A DNA stretch of 64,000 bases from Escherichia coli. Lineage in GTDB: Bacteria; Pseudomonadota; Gammaproteobacteria; Enterobacterales; Enterobacteriaceae. A program made the translations under genes and the position numbers. The first letter of the stretch is position 1, and every line of letters starts with the position of its first letter. Below, one piece after another: positions 10,485-34,501 of this stretch. The stretch lies in assembly GCF_016903815.1 (NCBI RefSeq), contig NZ_CP069973.1. One strand, written 5' to 3'. The notes under the pieces are model-generated. The model was not told the DNA's origin, did not search any database, and saw only the letters and a program-made list of their open reading frames with translations.

Positions 10485-10920
10485 GTGACAGCCGTATTGT
10501 GGCCCTCATCGGGCCACTTTTCGCCATCAGCCTTTTCTTTAAAGACATATTATCTTTGTATCATTTCTGATAGTTAACATTACAAGATATAAGTAATGGA
10601 CGCACTCCCAATTAGTCTATTTAAATCGCCACGAGTTTAACTGACAACCCATGATCAATTATGAATTGCAACTATTTCTGTAGTCACTTTTGTGGGGACA
10701 GTCCACAAAACTGCCAACTTCCGCTTCTTGCTCTTAGCGGACATTAGCATAGGCTATTTACCATAACGCCTCATTACGCGCACCGCCCAGACTGACTCAG
10801 CGCGTTTCTGGCATATCCCCGGTAAAACAAGTAACAAACCACCCGAAAATGAACACCAGAAACGCGACTTAAGAATCTACCCTATGAATGGATATGCACT
10901 CAACCGAATCGATCTTGGTT

Positions 10921-12234
10921 TCAATCTTTTTTATCGGGATCAGGCTTCTTTTTAGGTAACTTCGGGGGCTTAACTTGCTGATGACTTTGCGTTCGGCGCG
11001 TAAGCCAGGGATGGTCAGCTTTAGGTTTAACATAGTATTTTGAGCGTAAATCAATACGGGCATTATCCACTCGTTCATGGACACTCTTTTCATCATCCAG
11101 TGGTATAGGCTCCGGGCCATCAACATACTTTTCCCAGCCCAGCGCTTTCCCGTCATACAGAACGTTAATTTCACCGTCAAAGTTCTCGCATACAGTAACA
11201 ACCGAATGCCTAAGTCGATATCCCCGGCCCTCACTGCGTACCTGAAACGCACTGCTTTTGTACTGGAAAGTGAGATTTTTAGACAGAACGCGCTTCGCCT
11301 GTAGGCTGAAGATATAACCCAGTTCCTCTTCAGAATGGTGCACATCAAGATGAGCATTATCAGTAGTACGAGGCGACGTAGCGAACCGGTTGTTATAGGC
11401 TTCAATAAAGGTCGGCAACCATGCATTTGCTGTTTCAATATCACTGATATTCTGAAGCCGCATTTCTTTGACCAGCCTGTCCTGTAGTGTCTGATTGGCG
11501 CGCTCTACCCGCCCTTTTGCCTGCGGGCTGTTGGCATGGATTGGCTCGATGCCCAGTGTCTTTATCGCACGAGTGAACTGGGTCAGCTCACCTTCCCGCT
11601 CTGGGTTATTTACCCTGAATATACTGTGTCTATCAGAGTAGAGAGCGAGCGGTACGCCATGATCATTAAGGTAACCCCGGAGGGTTTCCATGTAAGCCCG
11701 GGTTGTTTCAGCAGGCACAAAACGCAACGCCATCAACGCACTGGTGGCATCATCAATGAAAACGATCAGTGTACATCTGGGGCCTCGATTTTCAAACCAG
11801 TCATGAGGTGAGCCATCAATCTGGATCAGTTCACCGTAAGATGGTCGTCGCATGCGGCGTTGATATATACGGGCAATTTTACGACGGCGTTCACGCCATA
11901 ACCCCTCTTCTATCATCCACTTTCTGAGAGTTTCAACGGATAAAGATAAACCGTGTATCTCGCGCAATTTTTCGCACGCAAACGTAGGTCCAAAATCAGC
12001 GTAACGGCCTTTGAGGAGTGAAATTACTGTTGCTCTGAATTCAGTAGAAAAGGAATTATTAGGACGCTTTCCACGTCGGTGGGAAACCAGACCAGAAGGC
12101 CCTTCATTTCTATACCGTTGCACCAGACGTTTAACCTGCCGAATAGAAATGCCAATGCGTGCCGCAGCTTGTTCCTGAATAATCTGAAGTCGGTGGAGTT
12201 CCTTATGACTCATCGTAACAGTCTCTTTGATCAT
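10921..12234 (-). CDS. DDE transposase with N-terminal HTH and rve-type integrase core (IS481/ISNCY-like, family unresolved)
   Basis: 437-aa ORF; the rve/RNase-H-type core is inferred from the overall layout of the protein (segments such as IQIDGSPHDW, LIVFIDDATS, ALYSDRHSIF) and was not verified by a profile search; alternative start at 12213 (MSHKEL). Confidence 0.8.
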   Translation of the reverse strand: MIKETVTMSHKELHRLQIIQEQAAARIGISIRQVKRLVQRYRNEGPSGLVSHRRGKRPNNSFSTEFRATVISLLKGRYADFGPTFACEKLREIHGLSLSVETLRKWMIEEGLWRERRRKIARIYQRRMRRPSYGELIQIDGSPHDWFENRGPRCTLIVFIDDATSALMALRFVPAETTRAYMETLRGYLNDHGVPLALYSDRHSIFRVNNPEREGELTQFTRAIKTLGIEPIHANSPQAKGRVERANQTLQDRLVKEMRLQNISDIETANAWLPTFIEAYNNRFATSPRTTDNAHLDVHHSEEELGYIFSLQAKRVLSKNLTFQYKSSAFQVRSEGRGYRLRHSVVTVCENFDGEINVLYDGKALGWEKYVDGPEPIPLDDEKSVHERVDNARIDLRSKYYVKPKADHPWLTRRTQSHQQVKPPKLPKKKPDPDKKD

Positions 12235-12451
12235 GAAAAATCCCCCAGAGAATTGTCTGGGGACATTTTAGAATGGTTCAAAGGGGACATTACAGCTTGG
12301 TGTTAACAATAGCCTGCTTCTCCGTGCCTTTCGGCACGTAAGAGGCTAACCTACATGTGTCTAGCATGAAATTGGCCTCAGATTAATGTTAAGCGTCTTG
12401 CAGGACGCGTAATGTTAACTGGGGCTTTTCTCTATCTGCCTTTGGTGTTCG

Positions 12452-12481
12452 TGCCCGAGGCAGATAGCCTCAAGCACCCGC
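12452..12481 (+). repeat. Direct repeat copy A flanking the kwaAB-like cassette
   Basis: TGCCCGAGGCAGATAGCCTCAAGCACCCGC; 14-nt core CCTCAAGCACCCGC identical to copy B at 14487-14500; preceded by inverted repeat CTATCTGCC/GGCAGATAG. Confidence 0.6.
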
Positions 12482-12717
12482 CGTGATTCTACAAAAACAT
12501 TACCCACCTTTCCAGCAATTCACAACAACTCCATGCAAATAGTAAGTAGAATAATAAGTTATTAGTATTAGCAATTTACTTAGTTTCTAATTTGTGCCAA
12601 TGATTTTCATTTTTGCATGAAAAATACCTTAACATTTTATATTTACTTACTATTTGTAAGCCCCATCAGTTCTTTCTGATGGCGGCTGGTATTTCAGTTC
12701 CAGATATAGTATATGCT

Positions 12718-13746
12718 TTACGCCTTAATAGGGTTAATCACATTTCCGCTATCCGTACCATAGTATTTTTTTGTAGTCATGCCTTGTTTATAATAATCAT
12801 TTAACAGTTTGAGAAAGTTTCTTCCTTGCCTCTCATCTTCTATGACTAATTTACCATGCTCATTGGTCTTAAACTCTTCGTTCTGAAACATTTTTAGCAC
12901 ATCATTCATAGCTTGAACATCATTCTTTTCCAGAACCGTATGGTTACCTTTCTCAGCGATATGAGTGAGAATTTTTCTCAGTGATGGCTTATGAAGAATA
13001 GCTTGTTCAATAACATCTAAACCTTCAATAAGATCAAGTTCTTTAATTGTATTTAATGTTTTTTGTGCAGCTTCTGTAAACTCAACCTCCAAGCCTACAA
13101 TAGCCTCAAAACTTTTCTTATGAAATACATAAAATTGATCTTTTATATAAATACAATCGATTTTGTCATCAAAATTGACTGCGCTGCCATCAAATGATCT
13201 TAACTCTTTATCTGTTTTATCAAACAAAGCGAATACGCGCTGAGTCATATTTTGTGGTTCATTTGTTGTGACTTTCCCCCTGCTGATTTTTCGGAAAGAA
13301 TAAGTGACGTCAGCCCCCTTTTGGACTTTAATACAATAGGCCCACAAATCATTCTGAACCTCAGCAAGAGAGGTAAGTACAACTGGTTTATCATTCTTTA
13401 TATCGTTATTAATAACTTTTGAAAACGATATCGCGTTATTCATAGCATAGGCATAAATTTTATTATCAATATCATCATCAATAACAGTATGCTTTTTCAT
13501 CACAATATCATCTTTCGAAGCATGAGAAATAATCTGGTTTGATAAAGTATACTTAAAAAATTTAGCAATATCTGGAGCGATTGGAGCTTTAATGATTTTA
13601 AAATCGAATTTATCAACAACTCTTGCGGTTCTACTCATACCCGCTTTAAGATGTCTAGTAATGAAATACAACGATATTTTCGCCGCATCATCATCCTTAA
13701 GTTGCTCAGCATACTCTAATAATTCTTCAAGCTTTAACATTTTCAT
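12718..13746 (-). CDS. Soluble 342-aa protein, candidate Kiwa KwaB-like (DUF4868-like) defense component
   Basis: Second gene of an AT-rich two-gene operon, 4-nt overlap with the upstream membrane-protein gene; family assignment by architecture only. Confidence 0.55.
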   Translation of the reverse strand: MKMLKLEELLEYAEQLKDDDAAKISLYFITRHLKAGMSRTARVVDKFDFKIIKAPIAPDIAKFFKYTLSNQIISHASKDDIVMKKHTVIDDDIDNKIYAYAMNNAISFSKVINNDIKNDKPVVLTSLAEVQNDLWAYCIKVQKGADVTYSFRKISRGKVTTNEPQNMTQRVFALFDKTDKELRSFDGSAVNFDDKIDCIYIKDQFYVFHKKSFEAIVGLEVEFTEAAQKTLNTIKELDLIEGLDVIEQAILHKPSLRKILTHIAEKGNHTVLEKNDVQAMNDVLKMFQNEEFKTNEHGKLVIEDERQGRNFLKLLNDYYKQGMTTKKYYGTDSGNVINPIKA

Positions 13747-14357
13747 TCCTTATGGGATTCAGCATAAAAAAGTTTTGGGCCCACGTCCTCAACATCAAGA
13801 AGATCATCTTCCTCCAAATACTTTGATTTAGTCAAAACCATACCAGTGCGTTTTTTGTCGCTTTCTAAATCCAAATATGTAACTTGATATAAAGTATAAT
13901 TAATACTTATTGTAGGATTTATAAGTATCATGCTTGAATTAATATATATTAAAGCCGTTACCGTTAACAATATTGCTATAGGTATAACATTAGTTAAAGT
14001 GGATAGATCCTGAAATACAAACGGAATTATATATGTAAAAAGATAGCTTATTGATTCATTGTTTTTATTTTCAATATCTATAACTCTTACAGTTCTACCA
14101 CTAGTGGCGCATCGACGTTTTATATTTTTTAAAAAAATTGTTAATCCTACAATACCAAATAATGATAATACACCAATGACACTGACCGCGCCAAAGTATT
14201 TAAAGAAAATAGTTAATGATTCAACACTTATACCTTTCCAATTTAAATAGCTTCTATAAGTATACAATTGCACAAAACACATGATAAAGAATAGGGGAAG
14301 GTATGACACTATAAATAGCGAAACTCTAGCACCTAAATGTAGTTTATTTACTCTCAT
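13743..14357 (-). CDS. Four-helix integral membrane protein, candidate Kiwa KwaA-like
   Basis: 204 aa with four hydrophobic segments (about residues 12-32, 55-76, 103-115, 125-140) and an acidic C-terminal tail; -10-like TAAAAT about 30 nt upstream. Confidence 0.55.
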   Translation of the reverse strand: MRVNKLHLGARVSLFIVSYLPLFFIMCFVQLYTYRSYLNWKGISVESLTIFFKYFGAVSVIGVLSLFGIVGLTIFLKNIKRRCATSGRTVRVIDIENKNNESISYLFTYIIPFVFQDLSTLTNVIPIAILLTVTALIYINSSMILINPTISINYTLYQVTYLDLESDKKRTGMVLTKSKYLEEDDLLDVEDVGPKLFYAESHKE

Positions 14358-14470
14358 AACTACCCCACAGCCTACACGTCTAGTATTTTATGTTATTTCG
14401 AATAATTATGCATCAGATTACCATCCTACAATTGTGCATAAAACGAGCATTTTGCTGATTTTTCTGCGGA

Positions 14471-14500
14471 TGCCTGAGACAGACAACCTCAAGCACCCGC
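14471..14500 (+). repeat. Direct repeat copy B flanking the kwaAB-like cassette
   Basis: TGCCTGAGACAGACAACCTCAAGCACCCGC, about 80 percent identical to copy A over 30 bp, same orientation. Confidence 0.6.
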
Positions 14501-14565
14501 AGCAATTTTACTTAACTCCCGCTACCTCGCCAATATGAAATCAATAAGAAAGGTGCTCCATAAAA

Positions 14566-15252
14566 TCACTCCTTCTCTTCTTTATCGTAGTGGAGTTGAC
14601 CAATTTTGATAAGAGGGCGTCCCTGAGATTTGCGGTGTAGATTGGTATCGCGCAGAGAATACACACAGCCACAATATTCCTGCTGATAGAATTTTTCGCG
14701 CTTGCTGATTTCAATCATGCGGGACGAGCCGCCCTGCTTGCGCCAGTTATAATCCCAGTACACCATGCCCGGATAATGCGCGACGGCTCGCCGCCCACAG
14801 TCGTTAACCTGCTGCATATTTTTCCAGCGTGAAATGCCCAGTGAACTGCTGATCACACTGAAACCATTTTCAGCAGCGTACAGCGCTGTCCGCTCAAAAC
14901 GCATGTCAAAACACATGGTACAACGGATCCCCCTCTCGGGCTCCCATTCCATTCCTTTGGCACGTTCAAACCAGTTGTCTGTGTCGTAATCAGCATCAAT
15001 AAATGGCACGCCGTGTTGTTCAGCAAAGCGAATATTCTCATCCTTACGAATTAAATACTCTTTCTGAGGATGAATGTTCGGGTTGTAGAAAAAGATGGTA
15101 TAGTCGATTCTCGAGGCCTGAAGTGCCTCCATCACTTCACCGGAACATGGAGCACAGCAAGAGTGCAGTAGTAGTTTGTTTGCCCCGTTTGGGAGCTCCA
15201 ATTTAGGCCGTTTGAAATCAGCAATAGTCATAAATATTTTTATTGGGGTCAT
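14566..15252 (-). CDS. QueH-like (DUF208) epoxyqueuosine-reductase homolog
   Basis: N-terminal [11 protein letters not shown] motif plus further conserved Cys (CTMC, CGC); alternative start at 15231. Confidence 0.65.
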
Positions 15253-15872: not shown

Positions 15873-16892
15873 TTATCCTCTGAAACCAGGCGGAATTTCT
15901 GTATCCGGTTCAGAAATATGATTAACACAACGCTGTACAGGTGAACGCCCCAGGCGGATGACCAGTTCGTCCCATTTTTCGCGGAGCTTTGACGGGCTCA
16001 TGATGTTTTTTACCCAGAATGGATCCCGCTGTACCCGACCAAACATTTCACAAATTTGTCTGTGACTTCTGCCATCCAGCATCCGCATTGTGCGCACATC
16101 ATTGGCCCAGACAGTCCAGTTAGGCTCTTTTGGTCGCATGATCTCGCCATCATCACTGGCGGCCTGTTCGTAGAGACCCACGATCCGCCCCCATATCCAC
16201 TGCGCACACGCCAGATCCTCCTGGCTACCCCACTGGCGTTTTTTCGCACTAAACACAACTGCGCCAGGGTGCCGGATTAAAAAATCCTGTTCAGCCGTCT
16301 GCGGGTCCGGTTGCGAAGCTTCCGGACGAAAAGTGTTTTTATTCTCTGTAGTAATCTCTGTTGTATTCTCTGTAGGATCATCGGGCCATTTTGACCCGAT
16401 GACATTGGGTCGTTTTGAACCAATGGAGCGTTTCATTTTGACCTCTTCCATCGTGTCATTTTGACCTGATGGAGCGGCGCATTTTGAACCGATGGATTCG
16501 CTCAATTTGCCATCATCTAAAAGCTCGCTCCCATAGTTAATCGTGTAGAAATTGGTCATATCGCGCTTTGATTTATTGAGCTTTTCACAACGCAAAAGCC
16601 CCAGCGTTTTCAGACTTGCAAACGCGCGCTTTAACGTTGACTCTGACCAGAATGGGAACTGTTCCAGCCATTGTTCCGTTGTGTTGTAAATCCAGCGAAC
16701 ACCATCACATTCCATGCCGGAATTGGTATCTCTCAACCAGTAATGCAACTGCTGCAACACAATGGCTTCATTTAAGCCAATCTTCATCGCAAGCTGTGTG
16801 TTTATAACCAGTGGGCGTTCAGCAAAAAGAAGGCTCATAATTCCATCCAGCTTTTTGTTGGTATTGCTGTCGATACGCAAGCTTGAAAGCAA
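15873..16892 (-). CDS. Phage replication initiator (lambda O-like)
   Basis: 339-aa ORF with HTH-like N-terminal domain; central IGSK repeats encoded by DNA iterons; start codon uncertain. Confidence 0.65.
   Translation of the reverse strand: MLSSLRIDSNTNKKLDGIMSLLFAERPLVINTQLAMKIGLNEAIVLQQLHYWLRDTNSGMECDGVRWIYNTTEQWLEQFPFWSESTLKRAFASLKTLGLLRCEKLNKSKRDMTNFYTINYGSELLDDGKLSESIGSKCAAPSGQNDTMEEVKMKRSIGSKRPNVIGSKWPDDPTENTTEITTENKNTFRPEASQPDPQTAEQDFLIRHPGAVVFSAKKRQWGSQEDLACAQWIWGRIVGLYEQAASDDGEIMRPKEPNWTVWANDVRTMRMLDGRSHRQICEMFGRVQRDPFWVKNIMSPSKLREKWDELVIRLGRSPVQRCVNHISEPDTEIPPGFRG
16330..16520. repeat. Candidate phage origin: five to six iterons (consensus about CATTTTGACCYGATGG) plus adjacent ATTCTCTGTAG repeats, inside the O-like gene
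   Basis: Tandem near-repeats at roughly 20-24-bp spacing between 16385 and 16520, AT-rich repeats at 16340-16378. Confidence 0.6.
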
Positions 16893-19199: not shown

Positions 19200-19257
19200 T
19201 TTCTGGTGACGTTTGGCGGTATCAGTTTTACTCCGTGACTGCTCTGCCGCCGTTTTT
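19200..19257 (+). ncRNA. dicF: DicF small regulatory RNA
   Basis: TTTCTGGTGACGTTTGGCGGTATCAGTTTTACTCCGTGACTGCTCTGCCGCC followed by a T-tract, matching recalled DicF. Confidence 0.85.
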
Positions 19258-32074: not shown

Positions 32075-34501
32075 ATGTCCAAAAATGAACAAATGGTGGG
32101 CATCAGCCGCAGAACACTCGTTAAATCTACCGCGATAGGTTCTCTGGCGCTGGCTGCAGGCGGTTTTTCTTTACCGTTCACCCTGCGCAGTGCAGCGGCA
32201 GCGGTACAACAGGCCAGCGAGAAAGTGGTCTGGGGTGCCTGTTCCGTCAACTGTGGTAGCCGCTGTGCACTTCGTCTGCATGTTAAAGATAATGAAGTGA
32301 CCTGGGTGGAAACTGACAACACCGGCAACGACGAGTATGGCAATCATCAAGTACGTGCCTGTTTGCGCGGTCGCTCCATCCGTCGGCGTATTAATCATCC
32401 CGATCGCTTGAATTACCCAATGAAACGCGTGGGCAAACGCGGCGAAGGCAAATTCGAACGGATTAGCTGGGATGAAGCCCTGGATACTATCGCCAGTAGC
32501 CTGAAAAAAACCGTCGAACAATATGGCAATGAGGCTGTATATATTCAGTACTCTTCGGGGATTGTTGGCGGCAATATGACCCGCTCTTCACCATCAGCCT
32601 CGGCGGTCAAACGCCTGATGAACTGCTACGGCGGTTCACTCAACCAGTATGGCTCCTACAGCACCGCGCAAATTTCCTGTGCCATGCCCTACACCTACGG
32701 CAGTAATGATGGCAACAGCACCACGGATATTGAAAACAGCAAGCTGGTCGTGATGTTTGGTAACAACCCGGCAGAAACCCGCATGAGCGGCGGTGGCATC
32801 ACTTATCTTCTTGAAAAAGCGCGCGAGAAATCGAACGCAAAAATGATTGTTATCGATCCGCGATATACCGATACGGCTGCTGGTCGTGAAGACGAATGGC
32901 TACCTATTCGCCCGGGCACCGATGCCGCGCTGGTTGCGGGTATTGCCTGGGTATTGATTAACGAAAATCTCGTTGATCAACCTTTTCTCGATAAATACTG
33001 CGTCGGCTATGACGAAAAAACCTTACCCGCAGATGCACCAAAAAATGGTCACTATAAAGCCTATATTCTTGGTGAAGGAGACGACAAAACAGCGAAAACG
33101 CCGCAGTGGGCTTCGCAAATTACCGGTATCCCGGTGGACCGTATCATCAAACTGGCGCGTGAAATTGGCACAGCAAAACCCGCTTATATCTGCCAGGGCT
33201 GGGGACCGCAACGCCAGGCAAACGGCGAGCTGACTGCACGCGCTATTGCGATGTTGCCTATTCTGACGGGCAATGTCGGCATCAGCGGCGGAAATAGTGG
33301 CGCGCGTGAATCGACCTATACCATTACCATAGAACGCCTGCCGGTGCTTGATAATCCGGTCAAAACGTCAATCTCCTGCTTCAGCTGGACAGATGCTATC
33401 GATCATGGCCCGCAAATGACGGCAATCCGCGACGGCGTCCGCGGCAAAGATAAACTGGATGTGCCCATTAAGTTCATCTGGAACTACGCGGGAAATACCC
33501 TCGTTAATCAGCATTCTGACATCAACAAAACGCATGAAATTCTGCAGGACGAATCGAAATGCGAAATGATTGTGGTCATCGAAAACTTTATGACCTCATC
33601 GGCAAAATATGCCGACATTCTGCTGCCAGACCTGATGACCGTTGAGCAGGAAGATATTATTCCTAACGACTACGCCGGTAACATGGGATATCTCATTTTC
33701 CTCCAGCCAGTCACCAGCGAAAAATTCGAACGCAAACCGATTTACTGGATCCTGAGTGAGGTCGCGAAACGTCTTGGACCTGACGTCTATCAAAAGTTCA
33801 CAGAAGGTCGCACGCAGGAACAATGGTTACAACATCTGTACGCCAAAATGCTTGCCAAAGATCCGGCGTTACCGTCTTACGACGAACTGAAAAAAATGGG
33901 TATCTATAAGCGTAAAGATCCCAATGGTCATTTTGTCGCCTACAAAGCATTTCGTGACGACCCCGAGGCAAATCCACTTAAAACGCCTTCCGGTAAGATT
34001 GAAATTTATTCCAGCAAGCTGGCGGAAATTGCCCGTACCTGGGAACTGGAAAAAGATGAAGTGATAAGCCCACTGCCAGTTTATGCCTCAACCTTTGAAG
34101 GCTGGGACTCCCCTGAACGTAGAACCTTCCCACTGCAACTGTTTGGTTTCCATTACAAATCCCGTACCCACTCGACCTACGGCAATATTGATGTCCTGAA
34201 GGCAGCCTGCCGTCAGGAGGTGTGGATCAACCCTATAGATGCACAGAAACGTGGGATTGCCAACGGCGATATGGTGCGGGTGTTTAACCATCGTGGCGAA
34301 GTTCGGCTACCAGCCAAAGTGACACCACGCATTCTCCCTGGGGTTAGCGCTATGGGCCAGGGAGCCTGGCACGAGGCCAATATGTCTGGCGATAAAATCG
34401 ACCATGGCGGCTGTGTGAATACGCTAACCACTCTGCGCCCTTCACCACTGGCGAAGGGAAACCCGCAGCACACTAATCTGGTCGAGATCGAAAAAATATA
34501 A
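32075..34501 (+). CDS. ynfE: Molybdopterin oxidoreductase catalytic subunit YnfE (DmsA paralog, Tat signal)
   Basis: 808 aa; twin-arginine motif SRRTLVK; Cys cluster CSVNCGSRC. Confidence 0.9.
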   Translation: MSKNEQMVGISRRTLVKSTAIGSLALAAGGFSLPFTLRSAAAAVQQASEKVVWGACSVNCGSRCALRLHVKDNEVTWVETDNTGNDEYGNHQVRACLRGRSIRRRINHPDRLNYPMKRVGKRGEGKFERISWDEALDTIASSLKKTVEQYGNEAVYIQYSSGIVGGNMTRSSPSASAVKRLMNCYGGSLNQYGSYSTAQISCAMPYTYGSNDGNSTTDIENSKLVVMFGNNPAETRMSGGGITYLLEKAREKSNAKMIVIDPRYTDTAAGREDEWLPIRPGTDAALVAGIAWVLINENLVDQPFLDKYCVGYDEKTLPADAPKNGHYKAYILGEGDDKTAKTPQWASQITGIPVDRIIKLAREIGTAKPAYICQGWGPQRQANGELTARAIAMLPILTGNVGISGGNSGARESTYTITIERLPVLDNPVKTSISCFSWTDAIDHGPQMTAIRDGVRGKDKLDVPIKFIWNYAGNTLVNQHSDINKTHEILQDESKCEMIVVIENFMTSSAKYADILLPDLMTVEQEDIIPNDYAGNMGYLIFLQPVTSEKFERKPIYWILSEVAKRLGPDVYQKFTEGRTQEQWLQHLYAKMLAKDPALPSYDELKKMGIYKRKDPNGHFVAYKAFRDDPEANPLKTPSGKIEIYSSKLAEIARTWELEKDEVISPLPVYASTFEGWDSPERRTFPLQLFGFHYKSRTHSTYGNIDVLKAACRQEVWINPIDAQKRGIANGDMVRVFNHRGEVRLPAKVTPRILPGVSAMGQGAWHEANMSGDKIDHGGCVNTLTTLRPSPLAKGNPQHTNLVEIEKI

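Follow-up and report, generated by a model that had tools for sequence, protein, structure and literature searches.

Why should a defense operon carried by a prophage be bracketed by two copies of the same short sequence? The question arises in a 64,000-nt stretch of Escherichia coli DNA (contig NZ_CP069973.1 of assembly GCF_016903815.1; the whole stretch is called the window below), where the two genes of a Kiwa operon, kwaA and kwaB, are flanked by a 30-bp direct repeat in a region that the RefSeq annotation of identical genomes places in the Qin cryptic lambdoid prophage. A first-pass annotation had taken the repeat for the signature of a cassette exchanged by site-specific or homology-guided recombination, or for the borders of a hotspot. 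Our answer is that the repeat is the 5′ end of the messenger RNA (mRNA) of hok, a toxin-antitoxin gene, and that Kiwa was inserted there. The reading as a whole, in which the cassette is a prophage moron acquired by homology-guided recombination between diverged hok 5′ regions, is one that we hold with good confidence.

The repeat as the 5′ end of hok mRNA

The features on which this identification depends are the following:

12452..12481, minus strand: repeat copy 1, approximately +1 to +30 of the hok mRNA, heading a complete hok leader; Rfam model RF01794 aligns from its position 1 at 12479
14471..14500, minus strand: repeat copy 2, an orphan that represents +1 to +30 of the mRNA from another hok allele, followed immediately by the kwaA 5′ untranslated region (UTR)
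12308..12479, minus strand: hok 5′ leader with the antisense sok region; Rfam RF01794, 105.6 bits (gathering score 59)

The two 30-mers, TGCCCGAGGCAGATAGCCTCAAGCACCCGC (12452-12481) and TGCCTGAGACAGACAACCTCAAGCACCCGC (14471-14500), have the same orientation and agree at 26 of 30 positions. They share an identical 14-nt core, CCTCAAGCACCCGC, present at 12468-12481 and 14487-14500. Copy 2 lies 113 nt upstream of the kwaA start, and on the downstream side 236 nt separate the kwaB stop from copy 1; the pair, spaced 2,019 bp from copy to copy, brackets both genes. To this point the first-pass annotation was confirmed with its coordinates exact, and its remark that the window holds no further copy was borne out for the core, of which no copy beyond the two was found with up to two mismatches allowed. 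Similarity without gaps reaches 41 nt at 80% (12452-12492 and 14471-14511), running 11 nt past the 30-mer because the −10 box of a promoter is included. A chance resemblance of the two 30-mers has a negligible probability in our estimate. The 14-mer by itself is not rare, since with two mismatches allowed 4 of 100 shuffled sequences contained two matches; however, same-strand pairs at 26/30 or better are expected only 0.0044 times per 64 kb and occurred in none of five shuffles, and a known RNA family is homologous to both copies.

That family is hok/sok, a group of type I toxin-antitoxin loci to which hokD of Qin belongs. The RF01794 match on the minus strand (12308-12479) covers model positions 1-157, so that copy 1 is the bona fide 5′ end of a full leader; it corresponds to model positions 1-28, with position 1 on GGGUGCUUGAGG, which is the core in reverse complement. 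The family consensus and the hairpin are also present in copy 2, and a promoter precedes it at the usual distance. Copy 2 differs from a hok locus in being cut at about +31, without the ucb element, the mok start, the Sok target, or hok itself, and in heading kwaAB instead. No Rfam match was found near 14358-14500 even at E ≤ 10, and copy 2 is a fragment of a hok family member, not a locus. Both copies align with the 5′ ends of hokC, of the hok gene on Photobacterium plasmid pPHDD1, and of phage hok. Copy 2 is one nucleotide different from hokC and one from the pPHDD1 hok leader, and its hok homology ends near +31, beyond which there are only scattered matches to hok leaders.

The differences between the copies also behave as expected for a structured RNA. 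All four are transitions; three fall in a stem and keep its pairing (C-G to U-G, G-C to G-U, and U-G to U-A), and the fourth is in the loop. Copy 1 folds into an 11-bp hairpin (−20.9 kcal/mol, z −5.6). Copy 2 folds into a hairpin of −13.3 kcal/mol alone and, in context, into a 14-bp stem that includes the extreme 5′ end, so a 5′-terminal hairpin with compatible substitutions is found in both. Nascent hok mRNA has been described as forming a metastable 5′ hairpin that involves the tac element (PMC9841398), and by sequence the repeat matches tac plus the metastable hairpin formed with the region immediately downstream. The four variable positions are ordinary hok-allele polymorphisms, freely combined with several promoter variants. 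Because the repeat is a functional RNA and promoter element of the hok family, its conservation does not call for a role in recombination. We regard its identity as the hok mRNA 5′ end as secure. The genome-wide check of the motif that had been proposed gave a divided result: the 30-bp motif is unique in the window, yet it recurs across the genome as the 5′ end of every hok locus. In a survey of 5,426 complete E. coli genomes, which is the set used throughout, hok-leader DNA had matches in 4,329, at a median of two places per genome.

Each copy is preceded at an equal distance by a predicted sigma-70-like promoter:

14501..14533, minus strand: PA, the resident predicted hok promoter, TTGGCG-17-TAAAAT at 14533-14505 (promoter scan); it now reads into copy 2 and kwaAB
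12482..12514, minus strand: PB, a second, diverged hok-type predicted promoter, TGGAAA-17-TAGAAT at 12514-12486 (promoter scan); it fronts the resident hok leader

In E. coli NCTC9022, where the hok locus is uninterrupted, the hok promoter has exactly the sequence of PA. PB aligns with other hok promoters around the −10 box and was found only in the 155 E. coli genomes that bear Kiwa, even by blastn with a word size of 11.

The Kiwa insert and its empty site

To define the site without Kiwa, we fused the hok leader (12309-12481) to the sequence right of copy 2 (14501-14800) and counted a genome as empty if at least 80% of this probe was covered. An empty site with a single repeat copy, as the first-pass annotation had predicted, does exist. 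The probe is contiguous at 99.8% in NCTC9022 and is covered to at least 80% in 797 of the 5,426 genomes, and phage HannyBb likewise has one copy in this arrangement. Over 12 kb, NCTC9022 and the window are collinear apart from three insertions that the window carries, and the overlap between the BLAST segments is exactly the 30-nt repeat. At the empty site, the sequence upstream of copy 2 runs through GCGGGTGCTTGAGG and then passes into that of copy 1 and the remaining leader. This places the junction within the 14-nt core and means that the insert brought in the 16 variable bases of copy 2. The flank on the side of the QueH-like gene was found in 1,048 genomes, and where Kiwa is missing the alignment ends at 14470, the outer edge of the repeat. 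The Kiwa insertion itself is thus secure. Its parts are as follows:

12482..14500, no strand assigned: inserted segment of 2,019 bp, defined by the empty-site alignment, its composition, and its presence as a whole in 155 genomes; the register is ambiguous within the core, and 12468-14486 is equally valid
13743..14357, minus strand: kwaA (204 aa); PADLOC KwaA PDLC00212, 1.3e-101; KwaA family protein in RefSeq
12718..13746, minus strand: kwaB (342 aa, DUF4868); PADLOC KwaB PDLC00223, 5.1e-158
14358..14470, minus strand: kwaA 5′ UTR, of which about 14358-14430 shows weak homology to kwaA upstream sequence in the relatives L013 and L014
12660..12686, minus strand: GC-rich hairpin 30 nt past the kwaB stop, read from the sequence as a possible weak terminator

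The only open reading frames (ORFs) within the insert are kwaA and kwaB, adjacent genes for the membrane protein KwaA and the DUF4868 protein KwaB, as in Kiwa systems. Matches to the NCBIfam equivalog models score under the curated cut-offs (81 vs. 100 and 58 vs. 200 bits), and the operon therefore represents a divergent Kiwa subtype. The G + C content of the insert is 25% to 39%, dropping to about 30%, against 46% to 51% in the flanks. Within the kwaA 5′ UTR, positions of about 14431-14470 had no match outside the cassette in E. coli genomes, plasmids, or phages, and the structure of the UTR apart from the terminal hairpin is unremarkable (z −1.9). The hairpin downstream of kwaB is without a T-run and was not called by the terminator scan. 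Upstream of kwaA, the −10 hexamer is TAGAAT in relatives and TAGACG here, and kwaAB expression may therefore depend on the hok promoter.

The interior of the insert (12482-14470) is present in 155 genomes, always complete, once per genome, and at no less than 99.6% identity; no parts of it were found elsewhere in E. coli, even at word-11 sensitivity. The same cassette also occurs on IMG/VR and metagenome contigs. Five loci (L004 and L009-L012) have it beside an uninterrupted hok gene, without the 3,274-bp relBE insertion that separates hokD from its leader in the window, and the Kiwa and relBE insertions are therefore independent. Three (L011, L015, and L143) have it in another phage background, in which homology to the window starts at 14518 (−18 in the hok promoter) and for which phage vB_EcoS-640R1 provides the empty counterpart with a single copy. 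No case was found among these of the cassette alone hopping between repeats, and the unit that moves between phages appears to be the hok module with Kiwa inside, carried by flanking homology. In L011 (3389-4004), kwaA is apparently split into two overlapping ORFs (122 and 92 aa), maybe by a frameshift or a sequencing error.

More distant Kiwa relatives, with 74% to 80% DNA identity, come from Yersinia, Symbiopectobacterium, a Martelella assembly, and two viral contigs, and share only the coding region with the cassette. Hok-like flanks and the repeat are absent from the relatives L013, L014, and L139-L141, obtained by searching IMG/VR and 100,044 species genomes. Judging from these loci, the hok repeat is not intrinsic to Kiwa. 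Two of the relatives, L013 and L014, are on other viral contigs, with KwaB identity of 75% to 77%. Both carry a LexA-box-like palindrome, CTGTATAAA(A/C)AAACAG, at 3215-3235, about 120 nt upstream of kwaA, which hints at SOS control of Kiwa in those contexts; L013 also has C4 antisense and isrK RNAs downstream. Kiwa operons often colocalize with mobile elements, including prophages (PMC11785009). Our literature search found no paper linking Kiwa with hok.

The empty sites are not uniform either. In HannyBb (L001, 3230-3614) and many otherwise empty sites, the hok promoter is separated from the QueH-like gene by an extra segment of about 375 bp that contains two small ORFs, which makes the intergenic DNA upstream of this promoter polymorphic in its own right.

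Possible routes of entry

Two features of the insert bear on how it came to be there: transposon features are absent from it, and copy 2 is of foreign hok origin. The latter is read from the four changes in copy 2, which keep the hairpin and resemble other hok alleles, so that copy 2 is foreign hok sequence and not a target-site duplication. In addition, the two ends of the insert are related to one hok promoter-leader by circular permutation: if 14500 is linked to 12482, the result is PB, then +1, the copy-2 leader, and kwaAB. The 2,019-bp moron consists of 16 nt of foreign hok leader, a 5′ UTR of about 110 nt, kwaA, kwaB, the hairpin, and the second, diverged hok-type promoter. It could have entered from a circular molecule, through one crossover at the core, or by unequal exchange between phages with diverged hok 5′ regions, plausibly assisted by phage recombinases of the Red/RecET type, which tolerate short homologies. 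Later spread within the hok module would have followed by ordinary lambdoid mosaic recombination. For this particular step, an origin by homology-guided recombination at the hok 5′ region, we claim somewhat better than even chances.

The insertion has several consequences. The predicted resident promoter of hok, followed by a hairpin leader of hok type (30 nt), now reads into kwaAB, the resident hok leader has been supplied with PB as a predicted replacement promoter, and the hok 5′ end is doubled in direct orientation. E. coli mRNAs are protected from 5′-end-dependent decay by 5′-terminal stem-loops. The hok promoter and 5′ hairpin would be predicted to give the kwaAB mRNA both expression and stability, and the cassette could be lost precisely by way of the two repeats.

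Several observations weigh against this account. No donor emerged: the junction of PB with the copy-2 leader had no match in viral and metagenome contigs, and no homologue of PB was found outside the cassette in plasmids and phages by blastn or in E. coli at word 11. A 14-nt core within a diverged stretch of 30 to 41 nt is short for RecA-dependent recombination. Finally, beside the 155 sites occupied by Kiwa and the 797 empty ones, about 96 of the 1,048 genomes with the QueH-side flank were classed as neither, having given less than 80% coverage of the empty-site probe. When the circularized junction and both insert ends were compared with plasmids and phages by blastn, only the roughly 42 to 50 nt common to all hok loci matched, and the copy-2 leader with its unique tail had five metagenome matches, all in the two known backgrounds.

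A different history would start from two adjacent hok/sok loci, with Kiwa replacing the body of the upstream one and leaving its promoter and first 30 nt. Copy 2 and PB do both resemble genuine diverged hok sequences, and tandem leaders exist: locus L095 has two complete ones 163 nt apart, joined at hok +1. However, the 797 near-empty sites and the phage relatives have one hok locus at this position, PB and the copy-2 leader occur in no tandem-hok relative, and the ends of the insert fit one continuous promoter-leader exactly, as in a simple insertion. We consider a tandem remnant rather unlikely. It is less likely still that a site-specific recombinase uses the 14-nt core for crossover, as at integron or att sites, or that the repeats border a defense hotspot in which cargo is swapped. 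Direct repeats with an identical core around a discrete unit, and an empty site with one copy, would suit such a system, but there is no recombinase gene in or beside the cassette, the core, being the 5′ end of the mRNA, is kept in all hok loci, it is absent from Kiwa relatives elsewhere, and the circular-junction sequence is absent from the public viral and metagenome data searched. A tRNA or att-like element was rejected as well, no tRNA having been found in the window. Only a single cargo has ever been seen at the site: none other lies between the borders in the 155 and 797 genomes (about 96 being unclassified), and among the matches listed for at least 120 IMG/VR hok loci with the 5′ 28-mer, the sole orphan leader is the Kiwa one. 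The idea of a hotspot with exchangeable cargo was therefore not upheld, as the site was seen only empty or with this Kiwa cassette in the 155 genomes, in the 1,048-genome flank set, and in those IMG/VR loci. The proposal of site-specific or homology-guided exchange survives in its second half: a breakpoint in the core fits homology-guided recombination, but a dedicated site is not supported, the core being a hok element and no recombinase gene lying in or beside the cassette.

One could also imagine that a transposase acting in trans, for instance the neighboring IS1202-family enzyme, generated the repeat as a long target-site duplication. The gene for this enzyme is 250 bp away, its own element has a 15-bp duplication, and the IS1202 family is reported to make target duplications of 16 to 28 bp (PMC10132070). 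We rejected this candidate because 4 of the 30 positions in copy 2 depart from the empty-site sequence, although the flanks are 99.4% to 99.8% identical. Moreover, the variant copy matches other hok alleles, the diverged similarity continues into the −10 box, and some Kiwa-bearing loci are without an IS1202-family element. The insert contains no transposase, has no TGT...ACA ends, and shows no terminal inverted repeats (12/32; best register 11/24), so that, with unequal copies as well, it lacks the marks of a transposable element. The duplication hypothesis is, in our view, barely credible. Homology-guided recombination between hok 5′ regions remains our preferred reading.

Known systems and neighboring elements

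A lambdoid moron, in the concept of Hendrix and Juhala, is an extra unit between elements that are adjacent in relatives, often with its own promoter or terminator and a different base composition. The Kiwa unit resembles one in being discrete, AT-rich, and missing from collinear relatives, in having a host-benefit defense function, and in lying in the late-early (nin) region. It is inserted between sequences that are adjacent in NCTC9022, HannyBb, and vB_EcoS-640R1, and its composition is distinct by the G + C values given above. Unlike typical morons, it sits inside a promoter and leader and not between genes, takes over the resident promoter, supplies the interrupted gene with a replacement, and creates a direct repeat of 30 to 41 bp. 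The promoter upstream of the cassette is the resident predicted hok promoter, and the hairpin after kwaB was not called as a terminator. We take Kiwa in hok to be an ordinary lambdoid moron, whose unusual feature is that it landed in, and duplicated, the hok promoter-leader.

Two other comparisons are instructive. Chromosomal hok loci are reported to be disrupted by insertions, and the hok regulatory region again serves as a landing place here, in a locus that also holds the relBE transposon. The difference is that Kiwa is a defense operon without a transposase that seems to have entered by homology, and that hok probably keeps a promoter. P2/P4-like elements are said to carry defense hotspots with conserved borders; Kiwa is likewise an anti-phage system carried by a prophage where relatives have an empty site, but no cargo diversity was found, and its borders are a duplicated RNA and promoter element instead of conserved core genes.

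These results account for the repeat in ordinary terms and remove a false lead to a new recombination system. They resolve the entry of one Kiwa operon into E. coli prophages to the base. They also predict that kwaAB is transcribed from the hok promoter with a hok hairpin leader, which is relevant when Kiwa is cloned "with native promoter." With hok/sok, Kiwa, and relBE, three defense or addiction modules are nested in one locus of the widespread Qin prophage, and the locus offers a natural test case for gene capture through short homology at a structured RNA and promoter element.

A broader idea is that the hok promoter and 5′ hairpin of lambdoid prophages serve again and again as a landing pad and provide incoming genes with ready-made means of expression, with repeats that allow reversible gain and loss. 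We regard it as unlikely and put it forward as speculation. If it were true, short-homology capture by Red/RecET enzymes would give foreign operons a constitutive promoter and a stabilizing 5′ stem-loop, and together with the nested relBE transposon the toxin-antitoxin locus would become a small, growing defense island. The tandem leaders of L095 (4529-4863, minus strand) are two diverged complete hok leaders that score 101 and 107 bits with Rfam; the first breaks off right before its mok start, where the second takes over from about hok +1. This is a second rearrangement with its junction at the hok mRNA 5′ end, and it hints at recurrence of landing-pad events.

The surroundings of the cassette contain further elements. 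In minus-strand order, the genes are dicC, YdaT/cII-like, O, a DUF977 gene, and QueH-like, then kwaA and kwaB, and then the ISNCY transposase, flxA, ydfV, relBE, hokD, rem, ydfU, and ydfT (Q). The features nearest to the hok module are these:

8866..9021, minus strand: hokD coding sequence (ORF list, RefSeq), contiguous with its leader in NCTC9022 and in L009 and L012
14566..15252, minus strand: QueH-like gene (RefSeq), the conserved upstream neighbor of the hok promoter in Qin-type prophages
9035..12308, no strand assigned: transposon-like insertion of 3,274 bp with relBE, ydfV, flxA, and the IS1202-family transposase

The transposon-like insertion severs hokD from its own leader in the window. 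It has a perfect 15-bp duplication, ATAGCCTGCTTCTCC, at 9020-9034 and 12309-12323, TGT...ACA ends, and imperfect terminal inverted repeats (22/32), and its transposase of the IS1202 family (ISNCY; 10921-12234, 437 aa) matches NF033594 at 456 bits. The element is absent from NCTC9022 and several IMG/VR loci. By these features, it looks like a "transporter IS," and it would explain the relBE-hokD arrangement of K-12; an integration of relBE into hokD has been noted before (Ramisetty and Santhosh 2016, as cited in PMC6379469).

Elsewhere in the window, positions 4074-4778 are an IS200C insertion relative to NCTC9022, with an Rfam STnc490 match at 4645-4768 inside it. Direct repeats at 32433-34470 are spaced by 2,484 and 2,496 bp and keep at least 26/30 identity over long runs. 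Rfam also places two cspA-type thermoregulator leaders (cspB/cspF region) and DicF at 1463-1848, 5070-5462, and 19201-19252, as expected for Qin. Inside the O replication gene, four to five iteron-like repeats with a 23-nt period (CATCGNNNCATTTTGAMCYGATG) occupy 16379-16517, the expected lambdoid origin.

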